Numbered from the stretch's first letter, positions 4,603 through 49,781 are shown. The stretch: 64,000 nucleotides of DNA from an uncultured Acidimicrobiia bacterium (GCA_964195315.1 CAXMOZ010000146.1:10878-74877); one strand, 5' to 3'. Notes: generated by a model not told the origin, from the letters alone. Numbers and translations: made by a program.

Positions 4603-4620
4603 AAGCTTATAAGCTAACAT

Positions 4621-4650: not shown

Positions 4651-4837
4651 GGCGTCTTAAACCGCACTTTCCGCGATAGCAGTGATAGTGGTGCCTGGTT
4701 TTTTTAGTCCTGTACTCCAATCCACGGGTTGTTGATGTACACTGTGATTGTGCGAACTGACTTGGTTAAGTTGACGGCTAAAGCTTCATAAATAGGGTAT
4801 TTAGTTTCGACGCAATGTATAAATATATGAGTGAAAA

Positions 4838-5563: not shown

Positions 5564-5565
5564 AA

Positions 5566-6123
5566 ATGATTCATGATGTACAAAAAGATGCGTTGAGTCG
5601 AATGAACAAAAGCATCGAAGCGTTTAAAGTGGAGTTGTCAAAAATTCGGACGGGCCGTGCGCATGTCAGCTTGTTAAACCATATTTCGGTGGATTTCTAT
5701 GGCAGTGAAGTACCCATTGGGCAAGCTGCCAATCTGACGGTTGAAGATGCTCGGACGTTAGCCGTAACACCCTGGGATAAGAGCATGGTGTCTGTCATCG
5801 AAAAGGCAATTATGAAGTCTGACCTGGGTTTAAACCCATCGACGTCGGGTGCTGTAATACGCGTACCAATGCCACCATTGACCGAAGAACGACGTAAAGA
5901 ACTCGTCAAAGTGGTCAAAGAGCTGGCTGAAAATGCTCGAATTGCCATTCGAAATATTCGGCGTGATGCGAATAGTGATCTCAAATCACTTGAGAAAGAT
6001 AAAGATATTTCTGAAGATGAAGAGCACAAGGGACAAGACTTAGTCCAGCAGACCACTAATCAATCTACCGATGAAATCGAATCGCTGTTACAGATTAAAG
6101 AAAAAGAGCTAATGGTAATTTAG
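5566..6123 (+). CDS. frr: Ribosome recycling factor
   Basis: 185 aa. Synteny and the motif [12 protein letters not shown] support the call. Confidence 0.95.
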
Positions 6124-6138
6124 GATCTATCGATTCAT

Positions 6139-6900: not shown

Positions 6901-7721
6901 TGCTCAAAAAACGTATATTAACCGCTACCGTGTTGGCGTTAGTGTTTGTAGATACCATCTTGTACACCGGTAACGCTGGGGCTAGCGTTTTATTTTCGCT
7001 CGCATTATTTGTCGCTGCACGTGAATTGTTTGCACTCACTATAAAGCCTGAGAAGACACTTGGAACACTCATCGCTATACTATTTGCCTCACTATTCTGG
7101 CTGTTCAACTTAAAGACGGGCATTCGCGCTAACTTTTATTTGTCTTTTGCTGGCTCATTACTTTGGGTTGGTATTTTGTTTTTTATGGTTCGCTACCAGT
7201 TTAGTGGTCAATGGGCTACTCCTACAAAATGGCTGCATCTGCTCATGGGTTTAGTTTTATTGTGGATATGTGGAACGGGTCTTTTATTTGTACATCGCCA
7301 CTTTGATGCCGGCGGTTTAATACTGTTCTACACCCTGACGCTCATATGGATTGCAGATATTGGGGCTTACTTTTCCGGAAAGAGATTTGGTCGAAACAAA
7401 CTGGCACCCGGAATTAGTCCGGGTAAAACGCGCGAAGGTGTTATTGGTGGCATTGTTTGTAATATGATTTGGATGTCCATCGTATTCTGGCTTAGTGGTG
7501 GCTGGGGCATGGCATTGTGGCAGTTTATCAGTATTGGATTATGTGCTTCGCTGATTTCGGTAGTCGGTGACCTGTATGAAAGTATTTTAAAGCGCGAAGC
7601 TGGCGTGAAAGATAGCGGTACACTCTTACCCGGGCATGGCGGTGTTTTAGACAGAGTTGATGGCGTGATCGCAGCGACTCCAGTTTTTATTCTGGGCCTA
7701 TACGCGGTAGGCGCAATATAA
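6900..7721 (+). CDS. cdsA: Phosphatidate cytidylyltransferase (CDP-diglyceride synthase)
   Basis: It is a multi-TM protein with the C-terminal CTP-transferase signature (…SxxKR…G…PGHGG…DR). Its start overlaps the uppS stop. Confidence 0.85.
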   Translation: MLKKRILTATVLALVFVDTILYTGNAGASVLFSLALFVAARELFALTIKPEKTLGTLIAILFASLFWLFNLKTGIRANFYLSFAGSLLWVGILFFMVRYQFSGQWATPTKWLHLLMGLVLLWICGTGLLFVHRHFDAGGLILFYTLTLIWIADIGAYFSGKRFGRNKLAPGISPGKTREGVIGGIVCNMIWMSIVFWLSGGWGMALWQFISIGLCASLISVVGDLYESILKREAGVKDSGTLLPGHGGVLDRVDGVIAATPVFILGLYAVGAI

Positions 7722-8909
7722 ATGCAGCAGATCACTATTCTTGGAGCGACGGGGTCGATAGGGGCAAGTAGCCTCGATGTCATTTCGCAGCACCCAACGC
7801 AATATTCGATTTATGCAGTCACTGCGAATACCAATGTCGAGAAGATGCTATCGATTTGCCTGCAGTATCAACCTCAATATGCGGTTATGAGCGATAAAGA
7901 TAGTGCGCAACAACTCAAATTATTGCTTAAAGGTTTGGCTACACGGGTCATTGATGGGCAACAAGGCCTACTCGAAGTAGCCAGTCATGATGAAGTCGAT
8001 ATTGTCATAGCGGCAATTGTCGGTTCGGTCGGGCTAATGCCTACCTTGGCAGCTGTCCGCAGCGCCAAACGGGTATTGTTAGCGAATAAGGAATCGCTAG
8101 TGATGATGGGCGATTTATTCATGAAAGAAGTCGCCCAGCATAAAGCATTGCTGATTCCAGTAGACAGCGAACACAATGCCATATTTCAATGTTTGCCTGC
8201 AGATTATGCCGCGAACCAAACTGAAAAAGGCATTAATAAACTACTACTCACCGGTTCAGGTGGACCGTTTCGTGAATTACCACTGAATGAATTTGATGCA
8301 GTGACGCCGCAGCGTGCCATTACTCATCCTAATTGGAGTATGGGCCCCAAAATCTCGGTTGATTCAGCGACTATGATGAATAAGGGCTTAGAATTAATAG
8401 AGGCTTGTTGGTTATTTGATATTGACGAAAAAAATGTTGAAATTGTTTTGCATAAACAAAGTATTATTCATTCAATGGTAGCTTATAATGATGGCTCAGT
8501 GTTGGCTCAAATGGGTAATCCTGATATGCGTACGCCGATTGCGAGTGCGTTAGCATGGCCAGATAGAATTAGCTCTGGTGTTGAACCATTAGACTTGATT
8601 CAGGTCAGTCAACTAGACTTTGAAACTGCCGATGATAAGCGTTTCCCCTGCCTTAAATTGGCACGTGACGCTTTTAAGCAAGGCGGTACTAGTATGGCCA
8701 TTTTGAACGCGGCTAATGAAGTGGCTGTCGCCAGTTTTCTGAACAAACAAATAAAATTCACTGGTATCCCAAAATTGATCGACAATACATTACAAAATAT
8801 CCAATCAAATGCAGCACATAATTTGGACATTATTCTAGATGATGATCGACGTGCTCGCGAGTTTGCGGGTCGACAGTCTGAGGTTTATAGTCGGCGGATA
8901 AATCACTGA
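7722..8909 (+). CDS. dxr: 1-deoxy-D-xylulose 5-phosphate reductoisomerase
   Basis: MQQITILGATGSIGASSLDV is the NADPH-binding N-terminus. The cdsA-dxr-rseP arrangement matches the Pseudomonas type. Confidence 0.9.
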   Translation: MQQITILGATGSIGASSLDVISQHPTQYSIYAVTANTNVEKMLSICLQYQPQYAVMSDKDSAQQLKLLLKGLATRVIDGQQGLLEVASHDEVDIVIAAIVGSVGLMPTLAAVRSAKRVLLANKESLVMMGDLFMKEVAQHKALLIPVDSEHNAIFQCLPADYAANQTEKGINKLLLTGSGGPFRELPLNEFDAVTPQRAITHPNWSMGPKISVDSATMMNKGLELIEACWLFDIDEKNVEIVLHKQSIIHSMVAYNDGSVLAQMGNPDMRTPIASALAWPDRISSGVEPLDLIQVSQLDFETADDKRFPCLKLARDAFKQGGTSMAILNAANEVAVASFLNKQIKFTGIPKLIDNTLQNIQSNAAHNLDIILDDDRRAREFAGRQSEVYSRRINH

Positions 8910-10291
8910 TGGATGGCTTCATTTCGGTTCTTTACAGTATCGCCGCATTTATCACTGCCATCGGTATCTTAGTGACGATACACGAATTTGGACATTTTTG
9001 GGTAGCTCGCAAAATGGGCGTCAAGGTGCTCAGGTTTTCAGTCGGTTTTGGTAAACCGTTGTGGACAAAAAAAGCCGGCCCCGATCAGACTGAATACGTT
9101 TTAGCCTGTATTCCGCTAGGTGGTTACGTGAAAATGCTCGATGAGCGTGAGGGTGACGTCGCTGAAAACGAGCTTGATAGAACATTTAATCGAAAGAGCG
9201 TTTGGCGACGTTTTGCCATTGTTGCTGCTGGACCGATGTTTAACTTCCTCTTCGCTATTGCCGCTTATTCCTTAATTTACATGATGGGAATCGACGGCGT
9301 GAAACCAGTTATCGGTGAAGTCACTAATCCTAGTCCTGCCTACAATGCTGGTATCCGGGCACAGGATACGATCCTTTCTGTGAATGGCATTAAAACATTG
9401 AGTTGGGAAAAAGCGCGTTTTACATTGCTTGAAGAATCGGTTGGTGCTGAGTCAATTGAGATTGAAGTTGAACGTGCTGACTTTCAAATAGAGAAAACGG
9501 TAGTTGACATTAGCCAGCTGCAGCTTTTAAAAAAAGAACAAATAGATCTAATAGGTGAATTGGGTTTCTCAGCCTGGCGCCCCAATATTCCTCCCGTTAT
9601 TGATGATGTTGTAGCAGGAGGAGCAGCAGAAGCAGCGGGTCTGTTGGCAAACGACAAAATAGTCATGCTAGCAGGTGAAATGATACCGAATGTACATCGT
9701 TGGGTTGAATTAATTCGGGCTAATCCAGAAAAATCTCTTGATGTCCTTGTGCTAAGAGACAATCAGCAAGTGACACTTAAAATTACCCCAGGAATTCGCA
9801 CTGATAAAGGCGAAAGCTATGGCTTCATTGGTGTCATGAATCGAATTGAAATACCAGACGATGTGCGGCAGAAAATGTTGGTTACCGAACGTTATGGGCC
9901 TATCGAAGCGCTCGGTGAATCGATAGAGAAAACATGGCGGATGTCTTGGTTAACTTTAAAAGTGCTCGGTAAATTGGTGGTTGGTGAGGCCAGTGTGAAA
10001 AATTTGAGTGGCCCAATTACAATCGCTAAGTACGCTGGGATTTCTGCACAAGTGGGTTTCGAGCAGTTCATCACCTTTCTCGCTATTATTAGCATTAGCC
10101 TAGGTGTATTGAATCTATTGCCTGTTCCTATTTTAGATGGAGGGCACTTATTTTATTATTTGATTGAAATGCTGAAAGGAAGCCCGGTATCAGAAACAAC
10201 GGAAGTGGTAGGTCAGAAAATTGGTGTGGTGCTGCTTTTTGGCCTCATGTCGATTGCTATTTATAACGACTTACTTCGTCTGGTGGGATAA
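8909..10291 (+). CDS. rseP: RIP zinc metalloprotease RseP
   Basis: HEFGHFWVARK is the HExxH motif in TM1. It also has PDZ regions and the LDGG motif (NLLPVPILDGGHL). Confidence 0.85.
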   Translation: MDGFISVLYSIAAFITAIGILVTIHEFGHFWVARKMGVKVLRFSVGFGKPLWTKKAGPDQTEYVLACIPLGGYVKMLDEREGDVAENELDRTFNRKSVWRRFAIVAAGPMFNFLFAIAAYSLIYMMGIDGVKPVIGEVTNPSPAYNAGIRAQDTILSVNGIKTLSWEKARFTLLEESVGAESIEIEVERADFQIEKTVVDISQLQLLKKEQIDLIGELGFSAWRPNIPPVIDDVVAGGAAEAAGLLANDKIVMLAGEMIPNVHRWVELIRANPEKSLDVLVLRDNQQVTLKITPGIRTDKGESYGFIGVMNRIEIPDDVRQKMLVTERYGPIEALGESIEKTWRMSWLTLKVLGKLVVGEASVKNLSGPITIAKYAGISAQVGFEQFITFLAIISISLGVLNLLPVPILDGGHLFYYLIEMLKGSPVSETTEVVGQKIGVVLLFGLMSIAIYNDLLRLVG

Positions 10292-30200: not shown

Positions 30201-33140
30201 TTGGATTGCATTTTAATGACAGAGACATCACCAGTAAAAAGCGAAATTAAATCGACCACCTGTTACATGTGTGCCTGTCGGTGTGGTATTAATGTAACAG
30301 TCGACGATGGCGAAGTTCGCTATATCGAAGGCAATCCCAGGCACCCAATTAACAAGGGTGTCATCTGTGCCAAGGGTTCCTCGGGAATAATGAAGCAATA
30401 TTCACCTGCGCGCATTACCAAACCATTACGACGAATACCGGGTGCAGAACGCGGTACGTCCGAGTTCGAAGAGATATCCTGGGAAGAAGCGCTCGATACA
30501 ATTAGTACACGTCTTAACCATATTCGCGAAACTGATCCTAAACAATTTGCACTGTTTACTGGTCGCGATCAGATGCAAGCCTTAACCGGATTGTTTGCAA
30601 AACAATTTGGTACACCAAACTACGCGGCCCATGGTGGTTTTTGTTCGGTGAACATGGCTGCTGGATTAATCTATACCATTGGCGGGTCGTTTTGGGAATT
30701 CGGTGGACCTGATTTGGAACGTTCAAAGTTATTCATCATGATAGGCACCGCCGAAGACCATCACTCAAATCCAATGAAGATGGAGCTTGCTCAGTTCAAA
30801 CGCAATGGCGGAAAATTTATTGCAATTAACCCAGTGCGAACCGGCTATGCTGCCATTGCTGATGAATGGGTGCCAATAAAGCCAGGCACCGATGGCGCTT
30901 TGTTACTTGCTATCAATCACGAAATTATCAAGCAGGGTCTTTATGACCATGACTTTCTATCTAAATACAGCAACTCTCCTGACTTGGTTAATACTGATGA
31001 AGCCAGTGATGCTTTTGGTATGTTTATTCGTTCCATCATAGAGCTCGAAAATAGCAGTGTAGAGCCAGAAAACAAAGTGTGGTGGGATAAACATACTGGG
31101 AAAGAAGTACCCTCACATACACCCGGTGCCGAACCTCGGTTACTGGGTGACTTCGAGCTAGAAGACGGCACGACGGTCAAACCATCTTTCCAGTTATTGA
31201 AAGAGCGGTTAGAGAAATACACGCCAGAATGGGCGGCTGACATTACCGGTATTTCTGCAGAAACGATTCGTCGCTTAGCTCACGAGATGGGTATTGTTGC
31301 CCGCGATGAAACAATTGAGCTTCCCATTCCATGGACTGATACCTGGGGCAATGAGCATGAATCTGTCACTGGTAACCCAGTGTCATTTCATGCCATGAGA
31401 GGCTTAGCGGCTCATTCTAATGGTTTCCAGACTATCCGGTCACTCGGCATATTAATGACGCTATTGGGCACTATCGACCGCCCAGGTGGGTTTCGTCACA
31501 AAGCACCATTCCCACGTCCTATTCCCCCTTGTGCAAAACCACCCAAGTCACCTGAAGATGTTCAACCGGGTGCTCCATTGGAGGGTATGCCCCTTGGTTT
31601 TCCAGCATCACCTGAAGATTTATTTGTCGATGATGAAGGTGGTCCGGTTCGTCTAGACAAAGGGTTCTCCTGGGAATATCCGCTCTCAGTGCATGGTTTA
31701 ATGCACAATGCGATTACTAACGCATGGCGTGGCGATCCTTACCCTATCGATACAATGATGTTGTTCATGGCTAACATGGCCTGGAACTCATCGATGAACA
31801 CGTCTAAGGTTCGTGAAATGTTGACCGACAAGAGAGAAGATGGAGAGTATAAAATTCCATTTTTAATTGTCTGCGATGCTTTCCATTCTGAAACCATAGC
31901 GTTTGCGGATATCGTATTACCCGATACGACTTATCTCGAACGATACGATGCGATGTCAATGCTTGACAGGCCGATCTCTGAGTTTCAGGGTCCTGCTGAT
32001 TCAGTCCGTGTGCCGGTTGTGCCACCCAAAGGTGACTGTCGTCCTTTTCAAGATGTTATTGTCGAATTGGGTTCAAGGCTTAAACTGCCACGTTTTATGA
32101 ATTTTGACGGCACACGTAAATTCAAAGACTACAAAGACTTCGTTATAAATTTCGAAACTGAACTGGGTTCTGGCATTGGTTTTCTAGCGGGCTGGCGCGG
32201 CAAGGACGGAGACAAGTCTATGCGCGGCGAGCCAAACCCTAATCAATGGGAAATGTACGCCAAGAATGATTGTGTTTTTCAGCACGAGTTGCCAAAGTCG
32301 TATCAATACATGCGTAACTGGAACCAGGGTTATCTCAACTGGGCTCAGGATCATAGCCTGATTAAACATACCGACCCTATTAACATCCATGTCTACTCAG
32401 AACTACTTCAAAAATTTCGTTTAGCCGCAGAAGGTAAGCGCGAAGGTCGTCAACCACCCGACCACCTGCGTGAACGAGTCAGGTTACACTTTGACCCGTT
32501 ACCATTTTATTCTGAGCCACTAGAAACAATGACGATAGACAAAGATCTCTACCCATTGAATGCCATAACTCAGCGACCAATGGCGATGTATCATTCCTGG
32601 GATTCTCAAAATGCCTGGTTGCGACAAATTCATGCCCATAATTATTTGGTCATGAGCCCTAGTGTAGGTGCAGATAATGGCTTTGGTGATGGCGACTGGA
32701 TCTGGGTTGAATCTGCCCATGGTAAAGTGAGGTGTATGTGTCGATTCAGTGAATCAGTAGAGCCGGGGACAGTATGGACCTGGAACGCTATTGGTAAAGC
32801 CTCGGGCAGCTGGTCTTTAGATGACAAAGCGAATGAATCGAAAAAAGGTTTTTTGTTAAACCATTTGATTAGCGAAGAGATTCCATCTGGCAAAGGTGAT
32901 GGAATGTATTCAAATTCTGACCCCATTACAGGACAGGCGGCTTGGTACGATCTGCGTGTTCGCGTTTACAAGGCGGGTGATGACGAGCCAAAAGAAACAT
33001 CGCCACAATTCGACACAATGAAACGAGTGCCTGGTATGGAACCCGCTCGTGGCCTATGGCAATCATTTGCAAAGGGTTTGCTTAACGGTGTATCAAAGAA
33101 AGATGTTTCAAATAACGGTTCTTCTAAGAAGAAGGGGTAG
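30201..33140 (+). CDS. soeA: Molybdopterin (bis-MGD) oxidoreductase catalytic subunit with no Tat signal, consistent with sulfite dehydrogenase (quinone) SoeA
   Basis: The N-terminal CYMCACRCGINV…CAKG is a 4Fe-4S cluster motif of the Mo-bisPGD family. 979 aa. There is no RR twin-arginine motif. It is followed by an FeS subunit and an NrfD-like subunit. Confidence 0.7.
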   Translation: MDCILMTETSPVKSEIKSTTCYMCACRCGINVTVDDGEVRYIEGNPRHPINKGVICAKGSSGIMKQYSPARITKPLRRIPGAERGTSEFEEISWEEALDTISTRLNHIRETDPKQFALFTGRDQMQALTGLFAKQFGTPNYAAHGGFCSVNMAAGLIYTIGGSFWEFGGPDLERSKLFIMIGTAEDHHSNPMKMELAQFKRNGGKFIAINPVRTGYAAIADEWVPIKPGTDGALLLAINHEIIKQGLYDHDFLSKYSNSPDLVNTDEASDAFGMFIRSIIELENSSVEPENKVWWDKHTGKEVPSHTPGAEPRLLGDFELEDGTTVKPSFQLLKERLEKYTPEWAADITGISAETIRRLAHEMGIVARDETIELPIPWTDTWGNEHESVTGNPVSFHAMRGLAAHSNGFQTIRSLGILMTLLGTIDRPGGFRHKAPFPRPIPPCAKPPKSPEDVQPGAPLEGMPLGFPASPEDLFVDDEGGPVRLDKGFSWEYPLSVHGLMHNAITNAWRGDPYPIDTMMLFMANMAWNSSMNTSKVREMLTDKREDGEYKIPFLIVCDAFHSETIAFADIVLPDTTYLERYDAMSMLDRPISEFQGPADSVRVPVVPPKGDCRPFQDVIVELGSRLKLPRFMNFDGTRKFKDYKDFVINFETELGSGIGFLAGWRGKDGDKSMRGEPNPNQWEMYAKNDCVFQHELPKSYQYMRNWNQGYLNWAQDHSLIKHTDPINIHVYSELLQKFRLAAEGKREGRQPPDHLRERVRLHFDPLPFYSEPLETMTIDKDLYPLNAITQRPMAMYHSWDSQNAWLRQIHAHNYLVMSPSVGADNGFGDGDWIWVESAHGKVRCMCRFSESVEPGTVWTWNAIGKASGSWSLDDKANESKKGFLLNHLISEEIPSGKGDGMYSNSDPITGQAAWYDLRVRVYKAGDDEPKETSPQFDTMKRVPGMEPARGLWQSFAKGLLNGVSKKDVSNNGSSKKKG

Positions 33141-33143
33141 ACT

Positions 33144-33878
33144 ATGACACAACTGGCACTAGTGATTGATTTAAATACCTGCGTCGGCTGTCATGCCTGC
33201 GTAACCAGCTGCAAAGAATGGAACACATCGGGAGAAGCAGGCCCGATGACAGATAAGAACCCTTACGGTGCTGACCCAACGGGCAACTTTTTTAATCGAG
33301 TTCAAACGTTTGAAGTTGGGTCCTTTCCAGAGACTGAAACCATTCACTTTCCAAAGTCATGTTTGCATTGTGAAGAGCCACCCTGTGTTCCAGTATGCCC
33401 AACCGGTGCGAGTTATAAACGGCCAGAAGATGGCATCGTATTGATCGATTATGATAAGTGCATTGGCTGTGAGTACTGCGCTTGGGCCTGTCCTTATGGC
33501 GCCAGAGAGTTTGATGAAAAAGAAAAGGTAATGAAAAAGTGTACCTTATGTGTTGATCGAATATACGATGAGGAATTACCAGAATCTCTACGTAAACCCG
33601 CCTGTGTTTTAGCTTGCCCAACGAGTGCGCGAATTTTTGGCGATGTACACGATCCAGCTTCAGAAGCCTCAATTGCGATCAATTTATCAAATGGCTATCA
33701 GTTAATGCCAGAGTGGGGCACGCAAGCAGCAAACCATTACCTTCCTCGACGAAAAGTGGACATTAAGCTACATGAAGAGGATTTGATGCGCTCGTCTAAC
33801 CCGCTTGATAAAGAGGATCGAGGTCCGAGACAGCCGTCGACTAGTTCGACGCTTGATGACTCTGCGGCCTCTTGGTAA
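33144..33878 (+). CDS. soeB: 4Fe-4S ferredoxin-type electron-transfer subunit (SoeB-like)
   Basis: It has four Cys clusters (CVGCHACVTSC, CLHCEEPPCVPVCP, CIGCEYCAWACP, CTLCVDR…CVLACP). 244 aa. Confidence 0.75.
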   Translation: MTQLALVIDLNTCVGCHACVTSCKEWNTSGEAGPMTDKNPYGADPTGNFFNRVQTFEVGSFPETETIHFPKSCLHCEEPPCVPVCPTGASYKRPEDGIVLIDYDKCIGCEYCAWACPYGAREFDEKEKVMKKCTLCVDRIYDEELPESLRKPACVLACPTSARIFGDVHDPASEASIAINLSNGYQLMPEWGTQAANHYLPRRKVDIKLHEEDLMRSSNPLDKEDRGPRQPSTSSTLDDSAASW

Positions 33879-33939
33879 CGTTTGATAATCCTTGTGAGTC
33901 AATACCTCTGATCAGTCACACTTAGATGAATACTAAACT

Positions 33940-34914
33940 ATGAAACCTGCAATATCTGTCATTCTACTCACGACTTTAATTGGTGTCGCTCAGGGCCTAT
34001 TTTTGGCTTATTACAGCGCCGAGTTACTCTCCCTACTGTTAATCCTACCTAATCAAGAGTTGGTAGGGTCAGGCCTTGCTGGAGTGGTCAGTGTTGTGCT
34101 CTTGGTGGGTGGTTTGATTGCATCATTCTTTCATTTGGGACATCCCGAACGCGCATGGCGTGCTGCTACTATGTGGCGTACATCATGGTTATCACGCGAA
34201 GTAATTGCATTGCCAATAGCGATGGGCTTAGTGTTTATTTATAGCGCATTAAAACTGATGGGTAATCACCACATTATGTTTAATTTGGGTAATGGTAGTC
34301 AGGTAGAGCTGGCAACCGTGGTTGGTTTTTTCGCAATGATTGCAGTTTTCGCCCTGTTTATTTGCACCGCGATGATTTACAGCTGCCTTAAATTTCTACG
34401 CCAATGGTATAGCCCGCTCACCGTGTTAAATTTTTTCCTGATGGGCTGTGCATCAGGGTTCGTACTGGCAAGTGCTTTGGCAGCTTATTATGATCCACAG
34501 GTTTTTGGCTATATATCGGGTGCTGCTATAGTTCTTAGTGTTGCAGCCTTGGCCTCGAGATACGCTTCATTGGTTCGTAATAAAAACTTACGTAGCCCAA
34601 GCACATTGCAAACAGCAATTGGTGTCCATCATCCAAATATTAGGCAGATAGCACAGGGCGCTATGGGGGGTAGTTATAATACCAGAGCCTTTATCCACAC
34701 TTATGGTCCAGCAGTGGTTAAATTGGCTCGGCGGTTCTTTCTAGTGGCCGGTTTTATTATTCCTATCTTGTTACTAGCCATTAGTAATGAATCTCCAATA
34801 GTGATCTGTTCATTGGCATTTTTGATTCAATACACTGGGTTGCTAGCCGAGCGATGGTACTTTTTTATAGAAGCTGAACATCCGCAAAATCTATACTATC
34901 AAATGATTACCTAG
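33940..34914 (+). CDS. soeC: NrfD/PsrC-family integral membrane quinone-interacting subunit (SoeC-like)
   Basis: 324 aa with about 8 hydrophobic helices. It lies immediately downstream of the FeS subunit. Confidence 0.7.
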   Translation: MKPAISVILLTTLIGVAQGLFLAYYSAELLSLLLILPNQELVGSGLAGVVSVVLLVGGLIASFFHLGHPERAWRAATMWRTSWLSREVIALPIAMGLVFIYSALKLMGNHHIMFNLGNGSQVELATVVGFFAMIAVFALFICTAMIYSCLKFLRQWYSPLTVLNFFLMGCASGFVLASALAAYYDPQVFGYISGAAIVLSVAALASRYASLVRNKNLRSPSTLQTAIGVHHPNIRQIAQGAMGGSYNTRAFIHTYGPAVVKLARRFFLVAGFIIPILLLAISNESPIVICSLAFLIQYTGLLAERWYFFIEAEHPQNLYYQMIT

Positions 34915-40915: not shown

Positions 40916-42382
40916 ATGCAAAAATTCCAACAATATATTGACGGCCAATTTAGTGATGGCTCAGCACAGTTTCCCAGCGTGGACCCTGCAACAGGACAAG
41001 CATGGGCCTTAATGCCAGAAGCAAAAGTAGATGATGTCAACGCTGCGGTAGAAGCCGCTGATCGAGCATTGTATTCGGCTGAGTGGGCCAACTTGACTGC
41101 AACATCACGAGGCAAGTTATTGTATAAGTTAGCTAGTCTGGTTGAGGAAAATGCAACCAGACTAGCTGAGCTAGAGACCCGGGATACCGGCAAAATTATT
41201 CGAGAGACCAGTGCCCAAATAGCTTATGTAGCCGAATACTATCGTTATTACGCTGGGTTGGCGGACAAAATTGAAGGCAAACACTTACCCATCGATAAAC
41301 CCGATATGGAAGTATGGTTACGCCGAGAACCGATAGGCGTTGTCGCAGCGATAGTACCCTGGAATTCACAGTTATTTCTTTCTGCAGTAAAGCTAGGTCC
41401 TGCACTGGCAGCGGGTTGTACCATAGTATTAAAAGCCTCCGAAGAAGGACCTGCGCCAATGCTAGAGTTTGCTCGACTCGTGCATGAAGCGGGTTTCCCT
41501 GCCGGTGTTGTGAATATCCTCACTGGCTTTGGCGCAGACTGTGGTTCGGTTTTAACATCGCATCAAAAAGTTGATCATGTCGCTTTCACTGGTGGCCCGG
41601 AAACCGCTCGCCATATCGTTCGGAACTCAGCACAAAATCTGGCGTCGACTTCATTAGAGCTAGGCGGAAAATCACCTTTTATCGTATTTGATGATGCTGA
41701 TATCGATAGTGCTGTTAATGCACAGGTATCTGCTATTTTTGCTGCCACGGGTCAAAGCTGTGTCGCGGGTTCTCGATTGATTATCAACCATAAAATCAAA
41801 GATGAGTTTCTGTCCAAACTAGTTGAAAAAGCCAAAGCAGTCATCATTGGCGACCCACAGGACATGGCAACAGAAATAGGGCCTCTATGCACTGTCAAAC
41901 AACGTGATCACGCATTGAGCATCATTGATGCCTCTATAAAAGAAGGTGCCAGGTTACTCACAGGTGGGGTTGCGATTGAAGGTGATGGCTTTTATTTCCC
42001 CCCCACTATTATTGATTGCAGCGATGTGCCCAACGCCGCCTGTGTTAAAACAGAGTTTTTTGGCCCAGTACTATCAGTGGTTAGTTTTGATAGCGAAGAA
42101 GAGGCATTACAACTGTCCAACGATACAGTCTATGGTTTGGCGTCCGGCGTCTTTACTCAAAACCTAACACGAGCACACCGCATGATTCGTGGCATTCGCG
42201 CTGGTATCGTATGGGTCAACACCTATCGAGTAGTTAGTCCCATTGCACCATTTGGCGGTCAAGGTATGTCAGGCCATGGACGCGAAGGCGGACTGGACGC
42301 GGCACTGGATTACACCAAAATAAAGTCAGTTTGGTTACGCACATCGGATGATGCCATTCCTGATCCGTTTGTGATGCGCTGA
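40916..42382 (+). CDS. NAD(P)-dependent aldehyde dehydrogenase
   Basis: ELGGKSP (catalytic Glu) and GQSCVAGSR (catalytic Cys). 488 aa. Confidence 0.9.
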   Translation: MQKFQQYIDGQFSDGSAQFPSVDPATGQAWALMPEAKVDDVNAAVEAADRALYSAEWANLTATSRGKLLYKLASLVEENATRLAELETRDTGKIIRETSAQIAYVAEYYRYYAGLADKIEGKHLPIDKPDMEVWLRREPIGVVAAIVPWNSQLFLSAVKLGPALAAGCTIVLKASEEGPAPMLEFARLVHEAGFPAGVVNILTGFGADCGSVLTSHQKVDHVAFTGGPETARHIVRNSAQNLASTSLELGGKSPFIVFDDADIDSAVNAQVSAIFAATGQSCVAGSRLIINHKIKDEFLSKLVEKAKAVIIGDPQDMATEIGPLCTVKQRDHALSIIDASIKEGARLLTGGVAIEGDGFYFPPTIIDCSDVPNAACVKTEFFGPVLSVVSFDSEEEALQLSNDTVYGLASGVFTQNLTRAHRMIRGIRAGIVWVNTYRVVSPIAPFGGQGMSGHGREGGLDAALDYTKIKSVWLRTSDDAIPDPFVMR

Positions 42383-42599
42383 GTAGAACTTAGCCCATAT
42401 GGAGAAATGAATAATGGGGGCATGCCTTGCTTAATCAGCTAATAAATTGCTGACAGGATTTTGCATACCTTGAGTGCCGCATTTTAATACATGAGTAAAT
42501 TGAGGTGCTCTCTACAGTCTACTAGCAGAGTTGAAACTGAATGGTTATGTATTGGCAGGGTATGAAAATTAGGGCATAAAAGTATTTCAGAGAATAGCT

Positions 42600-42926
42600 A
42601 TGAAACGTGATGAGACAATTGAACAACCTGAGCAGGAATTAAGCCATTATTCGGCCGAAGACGAATTGCCACTTCAATCTACTGAGAAAGAAGCGCTATT
42701 AATTCAAAGTGAAATTGTAATTCCAGGCTCACTAGACCCAGTGGATTTAACAGCAGAGAGGAATAACGTTAAGAATTTAGCTGGGGAAAATACGAGCAAA
42801 CAAGCACCTGAATATGCTGGCGAGCAAGAAAAAAGTAAACCTATCAATAGAAAGTATGATCTTGCCGTTATGTGGCTATTAGTATTATTGCTTTCAGCCT
42901 ATTTTATATATAAATTTCTAGTTTAG
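42600..42926 (+). CDS. Hypothetical acidic protein with a C-terminal TM anchor
   Basis: 108 aa. The body is Glu/Gln-rich and the tail is hydrophobic (LAVMWLLVLLLSAYFIYKFLV). Confidence 0.4.
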   Translation: MKRDETIEQPEQELSHYSAEDELPLQSTEKEALLIQSEIVIPGSLDPVDLTAERNNVKNLAGENTSKQAPEYAGEQEKSKPINRKYDLAVMWLLVLLLSAYFIYKFLV

Positions 42927-43054
42927 GTTTTCACCCAGCGCCCTATGGCATGCTGCAGATGTGAGAGTTGTCTGCCAATGGGGTAACATTAATGGGCAGT
43001 AGAAGTAATGTCTGACTAGTTTAATCAATAGATCTAATAATTTAAGGTGAAATT

Positions 43055-43468
43055 ATGGTAACGAAAAAGGCGATTGAGACCTTTCTGCAGAACGAGTTTC
43101 CCCAGGTTAGTTTCATTATTGAGTGCGTTGGTGAAAAATCGGCAACGATTAGGAAGGAAATAAATCATGATCATCTAAGGCCTGGTGGAACAGTCTCAGG
43201 GCCAGTGTTAATGGAACTAGCCGATGTTGCTTTATATGTCGCCATTTTGAGTGAAATTGGTCTGGTTCCACTTGCAGTGACTACCAGTTTAAATATTAAC
43301 TTTTTGCGCAAGCCGTCTGCGCAAAAAGATTTAGTCGCTAAATGTCACTTGATTAAAGTCGGAAAGTTATTGGCCATTGGAGAAGTATCGATTTACTCCG
43401 AAGGCTCTGTTGAGGTGGTCGCACATGCTGTAGGAACCTATGCGATACCGCCTGCCAGTAAGATCTAA
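43055..43468 (+). CDS. PaaI-family hotdog thioesterase
   Basis: 137 aa with an LRPGGTVSGPVLMELADVA-type hotdog core. Confidence 0.65.
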   Translation: MVTKKAIETFLQNEFPQVSFIIECVGEKSATIRKEINHDHLRPGGTVSGPVLMELADVALYVAILSEIGLVPLAVTTSLNINFLRKPSAQKDLVAKCHLIKVGKLLAIGEVSIYSEGSVEVVAHAVGTYAIPPASKI

Positions 43469-43556
43469 TAATCACCACCAAAAATTATTTGACAGCCAGC
43501 TAAGCCACTCTTCATGAAGGAAGGGCACAAGGGAAACCAGCCGCATTATCATTAAA

Positions 43557-44159
43557 CTACTCATCGTAAGGCTCAATCGAGTCAACACTCATGGTGTAGG
43601 CCGAATGCACTTCCAGGCTATTCGCAACACCTGACTCATTAAGCAGGCTGTTTGAACGACTTGTTTGCAGTGTACCGGTAATCCAGACAGGTTGATAAAT
43701 GTCGCTGAACTCAGTTTCTGCTTTTAATTGACCAAAGATTATTTGATTGGCAGGTGGCGGCGGAGTATGGGTACAGGCACCAAAGTAGGGCACCAGTAAA
43801 AACTCTCTCAGTAATGTGTTGCTAAATTCTAGGGGCAATACGAAACCAGGAATCTTTACCCGTTTACCATCCAGTTCATCATTGACGGGCGCGGCATCGA
43901 ACTTTGCCTGGACTTCTTCCTCCAGGCGCAGCAGTTCATCGTCAGAAAGCGCGTTGTACTGCTGATCTGTCATGTCTTCAAAAACCTTGGTCGGGTTCCA
44001 GTCGGGCGGCGCCAAACTCCCCCACTGTATTTTTTCTGGATCAGTTAGATTCGAATCAGCCGCAAACGCACTGTTAAAACTCAGGCAGGATAATAGGAAA
44101 ATAATAAGTTGGCACTTTAAAGACCACTGAATGTTTTGCACTTTTTTATCCTGTTTCAT
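43557..44159 (-). CDS. DUF3299-family exported protein, fourth gene of the putative Zn-uptake cluster (ZrgD-like?)
   Basis: It has a signal peptide and overlaps the permease stop. DUF3299 characteristically accompanies FtsX-type ABC systems. Confidence 0.55.
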   Translation of the reverse strand: MKQDKKVQNIQWSLKCQLIIFLLSCLSFNSAFAADSNLTDPEKIQWGSLAPPDWNPTKVFEDMTDQQYNALSDDELLRLEEEVQAKFDAAPVNDELDGKRVKIPGFVLPLEFSNTLLREFLLVPYFGACTHTPPPPANQIIFGQLKAETEFSDIYQPVWITGTLQTSRSNSLLNESGVANSLEVHSAYTMSVDSIEPYDE

Positions 44160-45406
44160 AGTCGGGTAGACATACCGTCAGCCAGTGAGTTCTGATAAGC
44201 CCGATACGCTGGGACCAGGCCGACGATAAAACCAGTGACGAGTAAAATCGAGACCATCAATATCTCTCTCTCATTGGGTAGAGTGATGGGTATGAATAAG
44301 CCGTAATTCGCTTCTATGATTGGTTGGCTTAACCCGAGTGCGGAATATAGTAGAACTATTCCAAGCAATATGCCTGCTATCGTTAATAACAGGGTCTCGG
44401 TGATCAGTAAGCCCATAATATGCCAATGGCTAGCCCCAACAGAGCGTAAAATGGCGACTTCACGCCTGCGTTCATTTAGCCCCGCAAGAGAGACTGCTAG
44501 CATTCCCGTGAGCGATGCCAATACAACAAATAGAGAAATAATCAATAGTGCCTTTTCTGCTACCGACATTAAGCTCCATAGTTCGAGCAGTGCAATACCG
44601 GGGAAAATGGCAAGCAGTGGTTCATCAGTGTATTCGTTAACATAGCGCTGAAGCCTGAATGATGTGACTTTGTTTTCGAGCCCTACTAGAAATGCTGTAA
44701 TAGACTTGGGTTGTAGGTTGGACTCTGATAAAGTTTTACCGAACTTTCTTTTGTTAACCGCGCTTTGCCAGTTGATGTGCATGGCTTCGATACCGGCGAG
44801 GCTGACATGAACTGTCCTGTCTACGGGTGTTCCTGTATGTTCTAAGATACCGCTAATGACGAATGGTTTATCTTTGTGTTCAGAAAAACTAGTGCTCACA
44901 GTACCGTGTGAAATGACTACCTCATCACCGATAGAATAGCTTAATGATCTTGCGACTTCTGAGCCGACGACGGTATCAAATACATCGTCGAAAGGTTTAC
45001 CTGAAGCGAGTTGAAGTTTTCGTTTTTGGCCATACTGGTAAAAAGCGAAATAATCTTTGCTAGTCCCCATAACACGAAAACCACGATGTGAATCGCCGAG
45101 TGATATAGGAATCGTCCATTTGACTCCTTTTTTTTGTGCGATAGCCTGGTAACTATCCCAGCTAATATTATTGGTGGCACTGCCTATTCTAAATACGGAA
45201 TAGAGCAATAGCTGAATTGACCCACTGCGCGCACCGACAATAAGGTCTGTTCCTGAAATAGTATTCGCAAAACTACTTTGAGCGTTAACTCGAATTTTCT
45301 CGACACCGAGCAAAAGAACGACACTCACAGCAATAGAGACAATAGTTAATATTGCAGTCGAGTGTCGTCTACATAAACTTTTCCAGGCGAGCATTCGAAG
45401 ATTCAT
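44156..45406 (-). CDS. ABC transporter permease, FtsX/MacB-like
   Basis: It has four TM helices with a large periplasmic loop and a C-terminal FtsX helical bundle. 416 aa. Confidence 0.8.
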   Translation of the reverse strand: MNLRMLAWKSLCRRHSTAILTIVSIAVSVVLLLGVEKIRVNAQSSFANTISGTDLIVGARSGSIQLLLYSVFRIGSATNNISWDSYQAIAQKKGVKWTIPISLGDSHRGFRVMGTSKDYFAFYQYGQKRKLQLASGKPFDDVFDTVVGSEVARSLSYSIGDEVVISHGTVSTSFSEHKDKPFVISGILEHTGTPVDRTVHVSLAGIEAMHINWQSAVNKRKFGKTLSESNLQPKSITAFLVGLENKVTSFRLQRYVNEYTDEPLLAIFPGIALLELWSLMSVAEKALLIISLFVVLASLTGMLAVSLAGLNERRREVAILRSVGASHWHIMGLLITETLLLTIAGILLGIVLLYSALGLSQPIIEANYGLFIPITLPNEREILMVSILLVTGFIVGLVPAYRAYQNSLADGMSTRL

Positions 45407-46128
45407 AAGTCTCCCGAGGCATGGGCACTTATTGATGACATTTCAACTACTCGATCAAACAGAGGCTTGTGGGTCGGATCGTGACTGACATATAGCAATG
45501 TAGAACCGCTGGTCTTAACCTCATCAAACAGCAGTGCCATGAACGCCTGTCGTGAATCATAATCAAGGGACGATGTAGGCTCATCAGCAATAATCAATTG
45601 AGGCTGACCAATCAGCGCCCGAGCGGCTGCCACGCGTTGTTGTTGGCCGACACTTAACTCACTAGTGCTGCGGTCAAAACCAATCGTTGCATCTGAATAC
45701 AAACGATTAAGTAAATAAATGGCTTCGTTAGCAACTGATCCGGAGCGCTCAATAGCATTCTGGCGCCTCACATCAGAAAATCGGCAGGGTAGGGTGACAT
45801 TCTCCAAAATAGATAAATAGGGAATTAGGTTGAACTGTTGGAAGATAAAACCAATGCTGTCTGCTCGAACTCTGTCGCGCTGTAACTCTTTAAGTTTTAG
45901 AAAGTCTTGCCCCACAACCTCAACCTGGCCCTTTTGTGGAGTGACAATACCGCCGATAATATTGAGCAACGTTGATTTGCCAGACCCTGATGCGCCTTGA
46001 ATGAATACATGCTCATGTCTGTCGATGCTTAGCTTACCAGATTGAATGCTGGGGCTTGCTTTGGCATGCCAGCTAAACTCGACATTCTGCAGTCGGATTA
46101 ACGGAGCCTTTAATTCTGATGAATTCAT
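45403..46128 (-). CDS. ABC transporter ATP-binding protein
   Basis: Walker A GASGSGKST, signature LSVGQQQR, Walker B LIIADEPTSSLD. Confidence 0.9.
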   Translation of the reverse strand: MNSSELKAPLIRLQNVEFSWHAKASPSIQSGKLSIDRHEHVFIQGASGSGKSTLLNIIGGIVTPQKGQVEVVGQDFLKLKELQRDRVRADSIGFIFQQFNLIPYLSILENVTLPCRFSDVRRQNAIERSGSVANEAIYLLNRLYSDATIGFDRSTSELSVGQQQRVAAARALIGQPQLIIADEPTSSLDYDSRQAFMALLFDEVKTSGSTLLYVSHDPTHKPLFDRVVEMSSISAHASGDL

Positions 46129-46694
46129 TCGTTGTTCAATTTAATGATCGAGTTATCTATCGTTAATGTTTGCTTAGTTTGACCCAAAGAATCAATGACC
46201 TGAACGTCTACTTTATTGATGGCAGGAAATAGTGCCATTAGTTGAACATCGATCGCAGTTAAACGATCGGCCTGTTCGCATTGCAAGTCGAATTCCGCCA
46301 AAAACTCTGCATGTTCAGCCTTAAGGGTTTCATCTTTATGTTCGTCATGATCTGAATGTTCGTCATGATCTGAGACCCAATTTGAAAAAGATCGAAGCAC
46401 CTTACATTCTGGTTTTCCACGCAATTTAAAAGCAGTATCAAAGCTAGAGAGCTTACTTTTAGCATCGGTAATTAAAGATCTCTGCTCTTCATCGTTAGGA
46501 GCGTACTCAAAACCTACGATATTAGCGGCCGGTGACTCGAAGCGAATAGCAATCACATTGTCATCTATTGCAATGTCGAGGCTTGCGCTACCATGCTCAT
46601 GTGAATCTAGCGTCTCACTCGCTAATGTTTGAAACGTGGTCAGGCTCATAAGCGAGCTGAGCAATACGATGGTAATAGGTTTAATAGTTTTCAT
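46125..46694 (-). CDS. His-rich periplasmic protein, candidate metal (Zn)-binding component (ZrgA-like?)
   Basis: The signal peptide is MKTIKPITIVLLSSLMSLTTFQTLA. There are His-rich acidic repeats SDHDEHSDHDEHKDE. The track ORF start at 46781 would run across the operator, so the shorter start is preferred. Confidence 0.6.
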   Translation of the reverse strand: MKTIKPITIVLLSSLMSLTTFQTLASETLDSHEHGSASLDIAIDDNVIAIRFESPAANIVGFEYAPNDEEQRSLITDAKSKLSSFDTAFKLRGKPECKVLRSFSNWVSDHDEHSDHDEHKDETLKAEHAEFLAEFDLQCEQADRLTAIDVQLMALFPAINKVDVQVIDSLGQTKQTLTIDNSIIKLNNE

Positions 46695-46709
46695 GATGTC
46701 CGCATAAAT

Positions 46710-46724
46710 TGTTATAACATAACA
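46710..46724. promoter_or_regulatory. Zur-box-like operator upstream of the His-rich protein/ABC operon
   Basis: TGTTATAACATAACA (minus strand TGTTATGTTATAACA) matches the gammaproteobacterial Zur consensus TGTTATAnTATAACA at 14/15 positions. It lies 15-30 nt upstream of the ATG. Confidence 0.55.
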
Positions 46725-46971
46725 TAACATTAATTTATAATCGAAAGTTTGTACAGCTAAATTTTTCTTACCTGAACGCAAACAGTTAACCGTCGATGTT
46801 TAAGTATTAATAATGCAACAATATTTCCAGTGAGGTGAATTCCAATTGCTTATTAAAGTGTGCGTTGTTATTAGCCTGGAACGATATAGTGTGGGAGTGA
46901 AAAATGAATTCGGATCAGTTATTTTGCACCTGTAACGTGAACAAAAGGTGCGATAGATGAAAGTTTCTTGA

Positions 46972-47333
46972 ACGGGCATAATCCTAAATACAGAAGAGTA
47001 TGATGAGTGTGTTTCTTTTTATGGTGATCTATTTGGCCTGAAGGTTCTCTTCAAAGAAAATGAAGGTGATTTCAAGCTGACCTGTTTTGAGTTTCAAGGA
47101 TCATATTTAATGGTTGAGACAGCAGGGGTTGCAAAACCCAAAGCAAAATTGATGGAAGAAAGTTGCACCAAGCTAAGATTTAACGTTTCAGATATTGAAG
47201 AAGCACTATCAACGATCACTTTATTTGCGTTGAAGCTGAAATCCTGAGAAGCGAGTGGGGTGCAACAATCAATATCCATGATCCTGATGGCAATAGAATT
47301 GGCATTAGAGATGAAGCAACCTTTAGAAGCTAA
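46972..47333 (+). pseudogene. Glyoxalase/VOC-family gene remnant. It is frameshifted and has no start codon.
   Basis: One frame gives …ILNTEEYDECVSFYGDLFGLKVLF…KLRFNVSDIEEALSTI. After a -1 shift near 47225 it continues …HFICVEAEILRSEWGATINIHDPDGNRIGIRDEATFRS*. Both halves match VOC motifs. Confidence 0.5.
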
Positions 47334-47828
47334 ATTAAAGGTTAATCATTAACTCTTTAAATAACACATATGAGTTTTCGTTGCGAACATGACGGTCCGC
47401 CACATACGTAGTGCAGCAATATGGATCAAGGGATGAAAAATAGAACTGGTTATCTATCTTACGGCAAAGCTATTTGAGTATTTTGATGCCGAGAGATATG
47501 AGCTGATTGGTTTAATCAGTGGTCATTCGATAAAGCATGTACTAGCGGCGGTGGTTTTATTGGTAATACATTAAACTGACCAAAACTTGCGTATTACACA
47601 GTCTCAGCTTTAAATGGTTTGGGGTCAATTAAGGACATTTTTAAGATAAAGTTTGACCTTTACCCTCGTAAATGGAATCGCTGGGTAACGATTGTTGGGG
47701 AATCAATATTAAGTCCTCTGTGGCTGTGCCCCTATGATCTGGTGAGTTTTTGAGCTTAGTGGGTAATGTCTAAAATCAAACCATCGTGGCATAATAGCTG
47801 ATTGAAATTTTTTGGCGTCATTAATTAG

Positions 47829-49781
47829 ATGAAGAAGTCCCATTTTAGCTGGATATTACCGATATCCAGTTTTGTTCTAGCCATTTTAGCCTTTCTTTCA
47901 TTGTCGCGTTTACTGTTGGTTAGCTGGCAGTTTGACAGGGTATCTGACACAGGTGGTTTCTGGTTTGTGCTGTTCCAGGGTATTCGTTTTGACCTATCTT
48001 TATTAGCAATATTACTTGTCATACCGTTTGCTTTACTGCCCTTACTTGGCATTCACCAAAGAAGCATGAGCATTGCGCTTTGGGTTCTCAAACTATATCT
48101 GTTAATACTGACCGGTGTTGTGGTGTTTTTGGAGCTAGCAACTCCGAATTTTATTCTGCAGTTTGACTTCAGGCCAAATGTCTTATTTTTGGAATATTTA
48201 AAATATCCGAAGGAAATTATCACTATGCTAGTGAAGGGATACCCCCTTCAGTTGCTGCTCGCCATCATCCTCACTGCTGTCGCACTTTACGGTATGAACC
48301 GACTTTTAAACAAAACCATAGAAGTGGTACAACCGAGTATCATTTGGAGTGCGCCATTTCTGTCTTTCCTGGTACTTATTTTGTGCGTATTGGCAGGTAG
48401 ATCGACACTTGATCACCGAGCCATTAATCCCAGTATTGTCGCCTTTTCAAATGATTCGTTAGTCAATTCGCTGGCACTTAGTTCTAGTTATTCTGTTGCT
48501 TATGCCCTCTATGAAAAAACACGTTATGAAAGTGGTGATGAACATCCCTATGGCAGTATGGATGAAGCAGCAATGATTGGTGAAATCTACCAGGCGATGG
48601 GGATGACAAAGGATGATTTTACGAACTCTGATATCCCGACTTTGCGTTTGCAAAAGTCGAAACTGATCAAGGGTTCGGATAGACCAAAAAATCTGGTGAT
48701 TATCCTCGAGGAAAGTCTGGGTGCTAATTATGTAGGTAAGTTAGGTGGGCATGATGTGACGCCAAATTTGGATGCGTTAGCGCAACAAGGTATCTGGTTT
48801 AATCAGCTCTATGCAACCGGTACGCGTTCTGTACGTGGTATCGAAGCGGTTATTACTGGGTTCCTACCGACACCTGCCCGCAGTATTGTCAAACTGGGTG
48901 GCAGCCAACATAATTTTTTTACTGTCGCACAACTACTGGCTAGGCAACAATATTCAACATCGTTCATTTATGGTGGTGAAGCCCACTTTGATAATATGAA
49001 ACGTTTTTTCTCACAGAATGGATTTAACCATATTATTGATGAGAATGATTATAAAAAACCTGACTTTTACGGTTCCTGGGGTGTATCAGATCAAGATTTA
49101 TTCAATAAAGCGCACGATACTTTTAACCAGCATCACAGTGACGGCGAACCTTTTTTTAGTTTAGTGTTTACCTCAACTAATCATAGCCCATTTGACTTTC
49201 CTGATGGTCGCATTGAGCTAGTTGAGCAACCTAAGGCAACCGTGAAGAACGCGGTGAAATATGCTGATTTTGCTTTGGGTGAATATATTGAAAAAGCAAA
49301 AAAATCCAATTATTGGAAAGATACCATATTTTTAATTATTGCTGATCATAGTGATCGGGTATTTGGCAGCGATCTAGTGCCAATAAAACAGTTTCGGATA
49401 CCAAGTCTGATTCTTGGAGAAGGTATTGTACCCAAAGAAGTTAACCGAATTGTTAGTCAAATCGATATGCTGCCGACGCTTTTATCTATGATGGGCGTGT
49501 CTGCAGAACACCCAGCGATTGGTATCGATTTAACTCGCCCAGACCTGTTACAGATTCCGGGTCGAGCGATAATGCAATACGGCAGTAATCAAGCTTATTT
49601 AGAAGGAGAGAAAGTGGTTATATTACAAAAGGACTTACCGCCACAGCAGTTTGATTACCAGAATGAAAAGCTGACTCCTTCTTTGGCAATAGACCCGGAA
49701 TTTCAACAACGCAGTGAAGCCCATGCACTTTGGGCAATGTGGGCTTATAAGACAAAATCCTATCGACTACCGAAGCAGTAG
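47829..49781 (+). CDS. LTA-synthase/sulfatase-family membrane phosphoglycerol transferase-like protein (OpgB/LtaS-like)
   Basis: It has about 5 N-terminal TM helices plus an alkaline-phosphatase-superfamily domain (LVIILEESLGANYVG…YATGTRSVRG…HSPF). Confidence 0.75.
   Translation: MKKSHFSWILPISSFVLAILAFLSLSRLLLVSWQFDRVSDTGGFWFVLFQGIRFDLSLLAILLVIPFALLPLLGIHQRSMSIALWVLKLYLLILTGVVVFLELATPNFILQFDFRPNVLFLEYLKYPKEIITMLVKGYPLQLLLAIILTAVALYGMNRLLNKTIEVVQPSIIWSAPFLSFLVLILCVLAGRSTLDHRAINPSIVAFSNDSLVNSLALSSSYSVAYALYEKTRYESGDEHPYGSMDEAAMIGEIYQAMGMTKDDFTNSDIPTLRLQKSKLIKGSDRPKNLVIILEESLGANYVGKLGGHDVTPNLDALAQQGIWFNQLYATGTRSVRGIEAVITGFLPTPARSIVKLGGSQHNFFTVAQLLARQQYSTSFIYGGEAHFDNMKRFFSQNGFNHIIDENDYKKPDFYGSWGVSDQDLFNKAHDTFNQHHSDGEPFFSLVFTSTNHSPFDFPDGRIELVEQPKATVKNAVKYADFALGEYIEKAKKSNYWKDTIFLIIADHSDRVFGSDLVPIKQFRIPSLILGEGIVPKEVNRIVSQIDMLPTLLSMMGVSAEHPAIGIDLTRPDLLQIPGRAIMQYGSNQAYLEGEKVVILQKDLPPQQFDYQNEKLTPSLAIDPEFQQRSEAHALWAMWAYKTKSYRLPKQ

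Follow-up and report, generated by a model that had tools for sequence, protein, structure and literature searches.

A 64,000-nucleotide stretch of DNA from an uncultured Acidimicrobiia bacterium (the window) carries, in its 43557-46740 region, four minus-strand open reading frames (ORFs) that make up an operon of the known ZrgA/PA4063-PA4066 family. It is proposed that this is a Zur-repressed zinc-starvation operon that probably serves zinc acquisition, with a hand-off of the metal from an exported ZrgA-like protein to the permease of an ATP-binding cassette (ABC) system. Within this proposal the weight is divided about evenly between a complex that would move zinc across the inner membrane and one that would act in the periplasm only, with another transporter completing entry. 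The analysis shows the gene content, family membership, operator conservation, conservation of ligand-type residues and type VII permease fold; Zur binding, zinc binding by this ZrgA, the ZrgA-to-permease hand-off and the direction of flux we infer. The first gene (46125..46694, minus strand, 189 amino acids) encodes an exported protein of the ZrgA/DUF2796 family that is predicted to bind zinc; it is followed on the same strand by the genes for an ABC ATPase (45403..46128, 241 amino acids), a type VII, MacB/FtsX-like permease (44156..45406, 416 amino acids) and an exported DUF3299 protein homologous to ZrgE and PA4066 (43557..44159, 200 amino acids). An earlier reading made from the sequence alone (the sequence-only reading) had claimed a Zur operator, an exported His-rich protein, an ABC ATPase, an FtsX-like permease and a DUF3299 protein, the four genes being translationally coupled, and each of these was recovered here; at every one of the three junctions stop and start overlap in an ATGA, precisely where that reading had put it (46125-46128, 45403-45406 and 44156-44159).

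The case for zinc control starts from a Zur-box-like palindrome, TGTTATGTTATAACA, read on the minus strand at 46710..46724, -30 to -16 from the ATG of the zrgA-like gene. It departs at one position in 15 bp from TGTTATAWTATAACA, which we take to be the gammaproteobacterial Zur consensus; the near-perfect operator (14/15) of the sequence-only reading thus stands. No other site in the 64-kb window has one mismatch or fewer, and none of 100 dinucleotide-preserving shuffles of the window produced such a site, while at up to three mismatches the matches in the window are no commoner than chance. For comparison, a ZrgA-seeded scan restricted to one genome per species gave 20 loci (L001-L020), to which three Joint Genome Institute (JGI) metagenome contigs (L021-L023) and two permease-seeded loci, from SAR324 (L024) and Marinobacterium (L025), were added, so that 25 loci were compared with the window. 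Of 24 related loci, 17 (L001-L015, L021 and L022) carry a box with two mismatches or fewer at a distance of 25-57 nt upstream of zrgA, and in most of these it is the sole such site in about 14 kb; in the two Pseudomonas loci (L014 and L015) it has two mismatches. In the alignment of upstream regions the box is the best-conserved block, and its flanks diverge.

A link to a zinc importer is found in Candidatus Njordibacter sp. Uisw_056 (L008), where znuA and znuCB (3955-6905) lie immediately upstream of zrgA and their divergent intergenic region holds, at 5136-5150, TGTTATAACATAACA, identical to window positions 46710-46724. The znu proteins of this locus have ZnuA, ZnuC and ZnuB as their best NCBIfam matches, below the curated cut-offs; its znuA also encodes a loop of HEDEA repeats that is very long. 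The order in L020 is a Zur-like box, a gene for a COG0523-type GTPase, zrgA and then the permease gene. The expectation that the motif should recur at known Zur targets is therefore borne out in relatives (L008 znuA/znuCB and the COG0523-type gene of L020), and the window is without such genes. Since the box keeps its position and sequence in 17 loci and the identical 15-mer stands between znuA and znuCB of L008, the comparative sequence data support Zur control of the four-gene operon.

A chance AT-rich palindrome, or the site of some other regulator, would leave the operon expressed independently of zinc. Such a reading could point to the absence of znuABC, zur, rpmE2 or any other Zur target from the 64-kb window, and to the distant lineages: over the whole of the locus, L016-L019, L024 and L025 show no site within two mismatches of the gammaproteobacterial consensus, and in L020 no such site stands directly upstream of zrgA. 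These lineages may use a different Zur motif, and L025 does hold a candidate with three mismatches. The outcome of the shuffles, the retention of the box between diverging flanks and its exact copy in L008 all speak against this reading, as does the Zur- and zinc-dependent regulation of the orthologous operons of Vibrio and Pseudomonas (PMC9817125, PMC11481552), and we regard it as very improbable.

Immediately upstream of the box a hexamer TATAAA (46734..46739, minus strand), read from the sequence, is a putative -10 element, and the box would then overlie the region where transcription starts. The candidate -35 element, TTTAGC at 46756-46761, is weak; relatives have a conserved TGCTAAcAT block where the window has TATAAA, and a consensus promoter scan reported no minus-strand promoter upstream of zrgA. 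Tandem Repeats Finder detected a pentamer repeat, 3.4 copies of GTTAT (46714..46730, minus strand), that extends the left half-site of the box, and the upstream alignment shows one copy more in the window than in relatives. All aligned homologues begin at the corresponding MK... signal peptide, and the ATG at 46694 is therefore taken as the zrgA start rather than the upstream TTG at 46781.

The product of the first gene is a clear member of its family. It matches Pfam PF10986 (formerly DUF2796 and now named 'ZrgA family zinc uptake protein') over the whole profile (positions 1-161 of 161, 7.7e-43, 146.7 bits against a cut-off of 27.4), and in the PDB it matches PA4063 (7ahw, 4e-16) and Vibrio cholerae ZrgA (8ezw, 3e-15). 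Its N-terminus, MKTIKPITIVLLSSLMSLTTFQTLA, followed by SE, was judged by inspection to be a signal peptide. Among the His, Cys, Asp and Glu residues, just six do not vary across 17 ZrgA orthologues, namely H32, H34, E63, H128, C97 and C139, all of which align to ligands or cysteines of PA4063 and V. cholerae ZrgA, where they act as site-1/site-b ligands and as a disulfide (PMC9820375, PMC8561739). The window protein shares with Vibrio ZrgA the fold family, the site-1 ligands, the disulfide and a His-rich loop (PMC9820375), and it is predicted to bind zinc. The other metal sites do not carry over: both histidines of PA4063 site a (His124, His126, Glu87), which is unconserved, align to L132 and E134 of the window protein, and sites 2 and 3 of V. 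cholerae ZrgA are not conserved in the family (PMC9820375).

The His-rich loop, SDHDEHSDHDEHKDE, occupies residues 108-122 and is the peptide that the sequence-only reading had quoted. It is about 15 residues long, compared with about 60 in V. cholerae, and ranges across homologues from near zero to about 100 residues. Two copies of an 18-nt unit (46338..46373, minus strand; Tandem Repeats Finder) encode its His/Asp-rich part, SDHDEH SDHDEH. In-frame insertions occur in the loop of proteins otherwise 100% identical to the window protein, namely 36 nt in L021 (about 8790-8940), 27 nt in L022 (about 1620-1765) and six extra residues in the protein P0001. This polymorphism between strains looks like repeat slippage and points to the loop as an element of tunable capacity that is not essential, a reading that fits the V. 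cholerae loop-deletion data.

The second and third genes encode the two halves of an ABC system. In its translation the ATPase (Pfam ABC_tran, 4e-28) retains Walker A, the Q-loop, the LSVGQ signature, Walker B and the H-loop, all of them intact, and its best NCBIfam matches are DevA, LolD, FtsE and the nucleotide-binding domain (NBD) of MacB, all below cut-offs. The permease matches MacB_PCD (1.3e-09) and FtsX (2.7e-17) and consists of four transmembrane helices and a periplasmic domain that spans roughly residues 40-275, about 235 in all. An AlphaFold2 model of it, with a predicted local distance difference test score (pLDDT) of 74.5, retrieved MacB, LolE/LolC, Spr0695, HrtB, YbbP, YtrF, FtsX and BceB in Foldseek at 11-17% identity, with a best E-value of 5.6e-15 and with MacB and LolE closest. 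On the combined basis of Pfam, hydropathy, the secondary structure of the model and Foldseek, the permease is assigned a type VII ABC fold. In a profile search against PDB sequences only its C-terminal FtsX part aligned, and the periplasmic domain gave no sequence alignment to any solved type VII structure.

It is in this periplasmic domain that the permease is most strongly constrained. Conservation was analysed in 17 orthologues and in a diverse set of 151 permeases that average 40% pairwise identity; this set joins the window sequence to the best 150 among the representatives of clusters at 50% identity. Conservation across the 151 sequences reaches 98% or more at twenty positions, of which 16 lie in the periplasmic domain. 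They include five potential ligands: D105, H167, H177, D196 and H210, all in this domain, are 99-100% conserved, compared with 1-77% for the six remaining histidines, and the only other conserved residues of the His, Cys, Asp or Glu kind are E316 and E337 of the family-wide FtsX motif. H167 and H177 bracket a low-confidence loop of the AlphaFold2 model. These five residues are specific to the subfamily when the permease is set beside MacB, LolCDE and FtsEX, and they are not mentioned in the available text of PMC9820375, PMC11481552 and PMC8561739. The start of the periplasmic domain, GARSGSIQLLLYSVFRIGSATNNI (residues 58-81), is also strongly conserved, with pLDDT below 50 at residues 65-77, and could be a partner-binding or membrane-dipping element.

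The fourth gene product, the DUF3299 protein, matches PF11736 (5e-38) and PDB entry 4hsp (3.2e-24); a structural-genomics structure exists for PA4066, the ZrgE homologue (PMC9820375), and it is to ZrgE, not to ZrgD, that DUF3299 corresponds (PMC9820375, PMC9817125). The motif EFLLVPY.GAC.H.PPPP.NQ, with E119, C129 and H131, is invariant in 15 orthologues. Invariant ligand-type residues thus occur in ZrgA, in the permease domain and in DUF3299, and on this ground we favour a direct handling of metal ions in the periplasm. The obligate co-encoding of two soluble periplasmic proteins would also suit a mechanotransducer of the FtsEX/LolCDE kind, which would activate or release a periplasmic protein, with DUF3299 or ZrgA as cargo or effector, and would supply no zinc to the cytoplasm; its task might be envelope remodelling, or the metallation of periplasmic or outer-membrane zinc enzymes in starvation. 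FtsEX and LolCDE, members of the same fold family, do act on periplasmic protein partners, and the periplasmic domain is the most conserved part of the permease. Yet an enzyme-like partner is not among the encoded proteins, a catalytic cavity is absent from PA4063 (PMC8561739), zinc rescues the growth defects of the Vibrio mutants (PMC9817125), and nothing points directly to a specific target, so that a role of this kind seems rather improbable. A lipoprotein reading of the DUF3299 N-terminus (LLSC) was considered and not adopted, the N-terminal region being unconserved among orthologues.

Several points weigh against zinc acquisition as the function of the operon. To our knowledge, the characterised type VII ABC systems are all exporters, extractors or mechanotransducers, and an import pathway through the membrane is known for none of them. 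The cores of the transmembrane helices contain no conserved His, Cys, Asp or Glu in the 151 permeases, which argues against a Zn2+ pore. The ZrgA-like protein scores 120.7 bits with NF047873, the NCBIfam equivalog model of Vibrio ZrgA, below the cut-off of 185, and by this measure it is a member of the family and not a strict ZrgA equivalog. In P. aeruginosa, genetic and metal-content data fit export of cobalt-pyochelin, and PA4066 has no evident zinc binding (PMC11481552); the zinc affinity of PA4063 is only micromolar (PMC8561739). The evidence for 'uptake' in Vibrio considered here is growth under N,N,N',N'-tetrakis(2-pyridylmethyl)ethylenediamine (TPEN), and a term search of PMC9817125 found no inductively coupled plasma mass spectrometry and no measurement of zinc content.

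Much of this would be accommodated by a MacB-type exporter of a metal-chelator complex, or of excess cobalt, operating in zinc starvation with ZrgA and DUF3299 as periplasmic export helpers. Besides the fold, closest to MacB and LolE, and the transmembrane cores without conserved metal-ligand residues, such an exporter has been argued for PA4064/PA4065 from AlphaFold models, reporter data and metal contents, and the PA4065 mutant gains cobalt in a pyochelin-dependent manner and shows a stronger zinc-starvation signal (PMC11481552). The gene content of the module tells a different story: in 22 loci its surroundings hold no conserved gene for a MacA/HlyD adaptor, an outer-membrane factor, metallophore synthesis or a TonB receptor, the called genes of L021-L025 contain no adaptor or outer-membrane-channel Pfam family, and the neighbours in the window, which have no link to metals, are unrelated metabolic genes (thioesterase, aldehyde dehydrogenase, luciferase-like monooxygenase, sulfatase-family protein and phosphoenolpyruvate carboxylase). 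Whereas MacB proper carries its NBD fused N-terminally to the permease, the NBD here is a separate polypeptide, as in LolCDE and FtsEX. The invariant residues of ZrgA correspond to direct Zn(II) ligands, and the periplasmic His/Asp cluster of the permease would be better suited to a bare metal ion than to a bulky chelate. Pyochelin is made by Pseudomonas, its cobalt complex as proposed substrate has no counterpart in the window, and the module spans Gammaproteobacteria to SAR324 and Leptospiraceae. The phenotypes in Vibrio also point to acquisition: V. cholerae and V. parahaemolyticus need zrgA and zrgABC to grow when zinc is limiting, and zinc deficiency induces the operon 75- to 205-fold, among the strongest Zur targets (PMC9820375, PMC9817125). 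In P. aeruginosa, PA4063 is zinc-repressed and a znuA zrmB mutant grows worse once PA4065 is lost (PMC11481552). With these points taken together, export, the main rival reading, is in our view unlikely for the window operon.

The zinc-acquisition proposal may be set out as follows. When zinc is sufficient, Zn-Zur would bind the palindrome just downstream of the likely -10 element, over the transcript start, and block transcription; when zinc is scarce, the four translationally coupled genes would be expressed together. The exported ZrgA would capture Zn(II) at its conserved His-x-His/Glu/His site, aided by the variable His/Asp-rich loop, and would dock on the large periplasmic domain of the permease, which has an invariant Asp/His cluster of its own. 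ATP hydrolysis would then drive mechanotransmission through the four-helix permease to the periplasmic domain, leading to transfer or release of the metal, with the DUF3299 protein as an obligate periplasmic accessory and a better cellular zinc supply in starvation as the net effect. As judged from the conservation pattern, the membrane domain does not look like an ion pore, and we favour an ATP-driven conformational change transmitted through it.

A more specific form of this scheme is put forward tentatively: Zrg-type ABC systems may belong neither with the classical importers nor with the exporters of metallophores, and may instead relay metal within the periplasm at the expense of ATP. Under such a relay, D105, H167, H177, D196 and H210 of the permease would form a metal site of its own that receives Zn(II) from ZrgA, and mechanotransmission from the ATPase would switch the affinity of this site and push the ion towards the membrane, the DUF3299 protein (through its Cys-x-His) or another transporter.

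The window operon finds its closest described counterpart in P. aeruginosa PA4063-PA4066, whose four genes agree with it in kind and in order and are likewise preceded by a Zur box; the order is also that of L014 and L015, the two Pseudomonas loci. Its permease and the Pseudomonas fluvialis orthologue share 56% identity, and ZrgA is only about 30% identical to its Pseudomonas counterpart. Vibrio zrgABCDE likewise is a Zur-regulon operon that combines a DUF3299 protein (ZrgE) with a type VII ABC pair, but it has five genes, including zrgD for a small membrane protein (DUF2607). This fifth gene is absent from the window, where the 1.1 kb upstream holds no ORF above 61 amino acids, and V. fischeri and P. 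profundum also lack zrgD (PMC9817125). The zrgABCDE-like cluster of the sequence-only reading therefore holds as to family and not as to layout, which is the four-gene PA4063-PA4066 form. Its zinc-starvation uptake system likewise holds as a Zrg-like member of the Zur regulon, with 'uptake' contested (PMC11481552). The description 'poorly characterised' is superseded, since structures of two components and genetics in three species exist, the crystal structures being those of V. cholerae ZrgA, PA4063 and PA4066 (PMC9820375, PMC8561739); that reading's statement that neither the transport mechanism nor the role of DUF3299 is defined continues to hold.

By its predicted proteins the cluster is neither a MacAB-TolC pump nor a ZnuABC-type importer. 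MacAB-TolC works with the adaptor MacA and with TolC, and the partners encoded in the window are ZrgA and DUF3299. ZnuABC is also Zur-regulated, has a periplasmic zinc-binding protein with a His-rich loop and, in L008, stands beside the zrg-like system under the same operator sequence, but the folds are unrelated: ZrgA is ferredoxin-like, whereas the ZnuABC binding protein is a Venus-flytrap substrate-binding protein, and the four-helix type VII permease differs from ZnuB (ABC-3). The window proteins have no ZnuA-type or ZnuB (ABC-3) match in Pfam or NCBIfam, and ZnuA, ZnuB and ZnuC of L008 found no match in the window beyond generic ATPase similarity.

The module is widespread. The 20 ZrgA-seeded loci come from uncultured Gammaproteobacteria, Candidatus Njordibacter (Pseudomonadales), Pseudomonas, Arenicellales, Granulosicoccus, Chromatiales and Leptospiraceae, and the permease has relatives in 922 clusters at 50% identity (E<=1e-30). 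The order ZrgA-ATPase-permease-DUF3299 is found in every locus long enough to show it, the exceptions being L019, which ends soon after the permease gene, and L020; it recurs in 20 loci, and two further loci lack DUF3299 only. The permease-seeded SAR324 and Marinobacterium contexts have the same four-gene architecture, and when ORFs of the 25 loci and the window were clustered only the four operon genes recurred. Among nearer relatives the ATPase and permease are 74-87% identical (74-85% for the ATPase in close relatives), against 47-64% for ZrgA. The JGI contigs L021-L023 are near-identical to the window, with the same operon and the same neighbours, and the NCBI protein P0121 is 100% identical to the window permease.

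Some of the related loci have features of their own. L020, from a high-GC Pseudomonadota metagenome-assembled genome (MAG), carries at 5575-8760 the box, the COG0523/CobW-type GTPase gene, zrgA and the permease gene, with the ATPase and DUF3299 genes not adjacent; downstream on the other strand it has genes for what, judged by sequence alone, are a PepSY-like protein and a probable TonB-dependent receptor. In the SAR324 MAG (L024) a 104-amino-acid protein with hydrophobic segments and a His-rich stretch, AFHEHEDHHVHDDCTIC, is encoded ahead of zrgA (4167-4481), and this His-rich membrane protein may be an analogue of Vibrio zrgD. In L001 and L002, the two closest MAG loci, the sulfatase-family gene is split over frames, as is the aldehyde dehydrogenase gene of L002 (the stretches concerned are 3500-4900 in L001, and 4300-5310 and 8890-10350 in L002); the split genes are either pseudogenes or assembly errors.

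In the window, a 1.1-kb gap (46725-47828) without an ORF above 61 amino acids separates the zrgA start from the divergent sulfatase-family gene. It shows no similarity to L001-L020 and no Rfam match at gathering score, and an Rfam scan of 42300-48000 gave only a sub-threshold match; JGI gene calling placed a 79-amino-acid gene in the counterpart of this gap in L021 (7854-8093). Downstream of the DUF3299 gene a terminator scan found none, and the RNA fold there is no better than that of shuffles. About 9 kb from the zrg cluster lies an unrelated operon (30201-34914) for a DMSO-reductase-family molybdoenzyme, made up of catalytic and 4Fe-4S subunits and a DmsC-like anchor.

The instance described here is itself ordinary, and it adds a further uncultured marine member, taken to be gammaproteobacterial, to a widespread zinc-starvation module. 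The question it bears on is one for the family: how a MacB-like machine, built on a fold without known import, helps cells obtain zinc. New here are the invariant ligand-type residues in all three periplasm-facing components, with none in the membrane cores, and these provide residues whose mutation could discriminate between import, periplasmic relay and export. The differing length of the His-rich ZrgA loop among strains that are otherwise identical is likewise new. Should the relay prove true, it would be the first type VII ABC system with a bare metal ion as its substrate.

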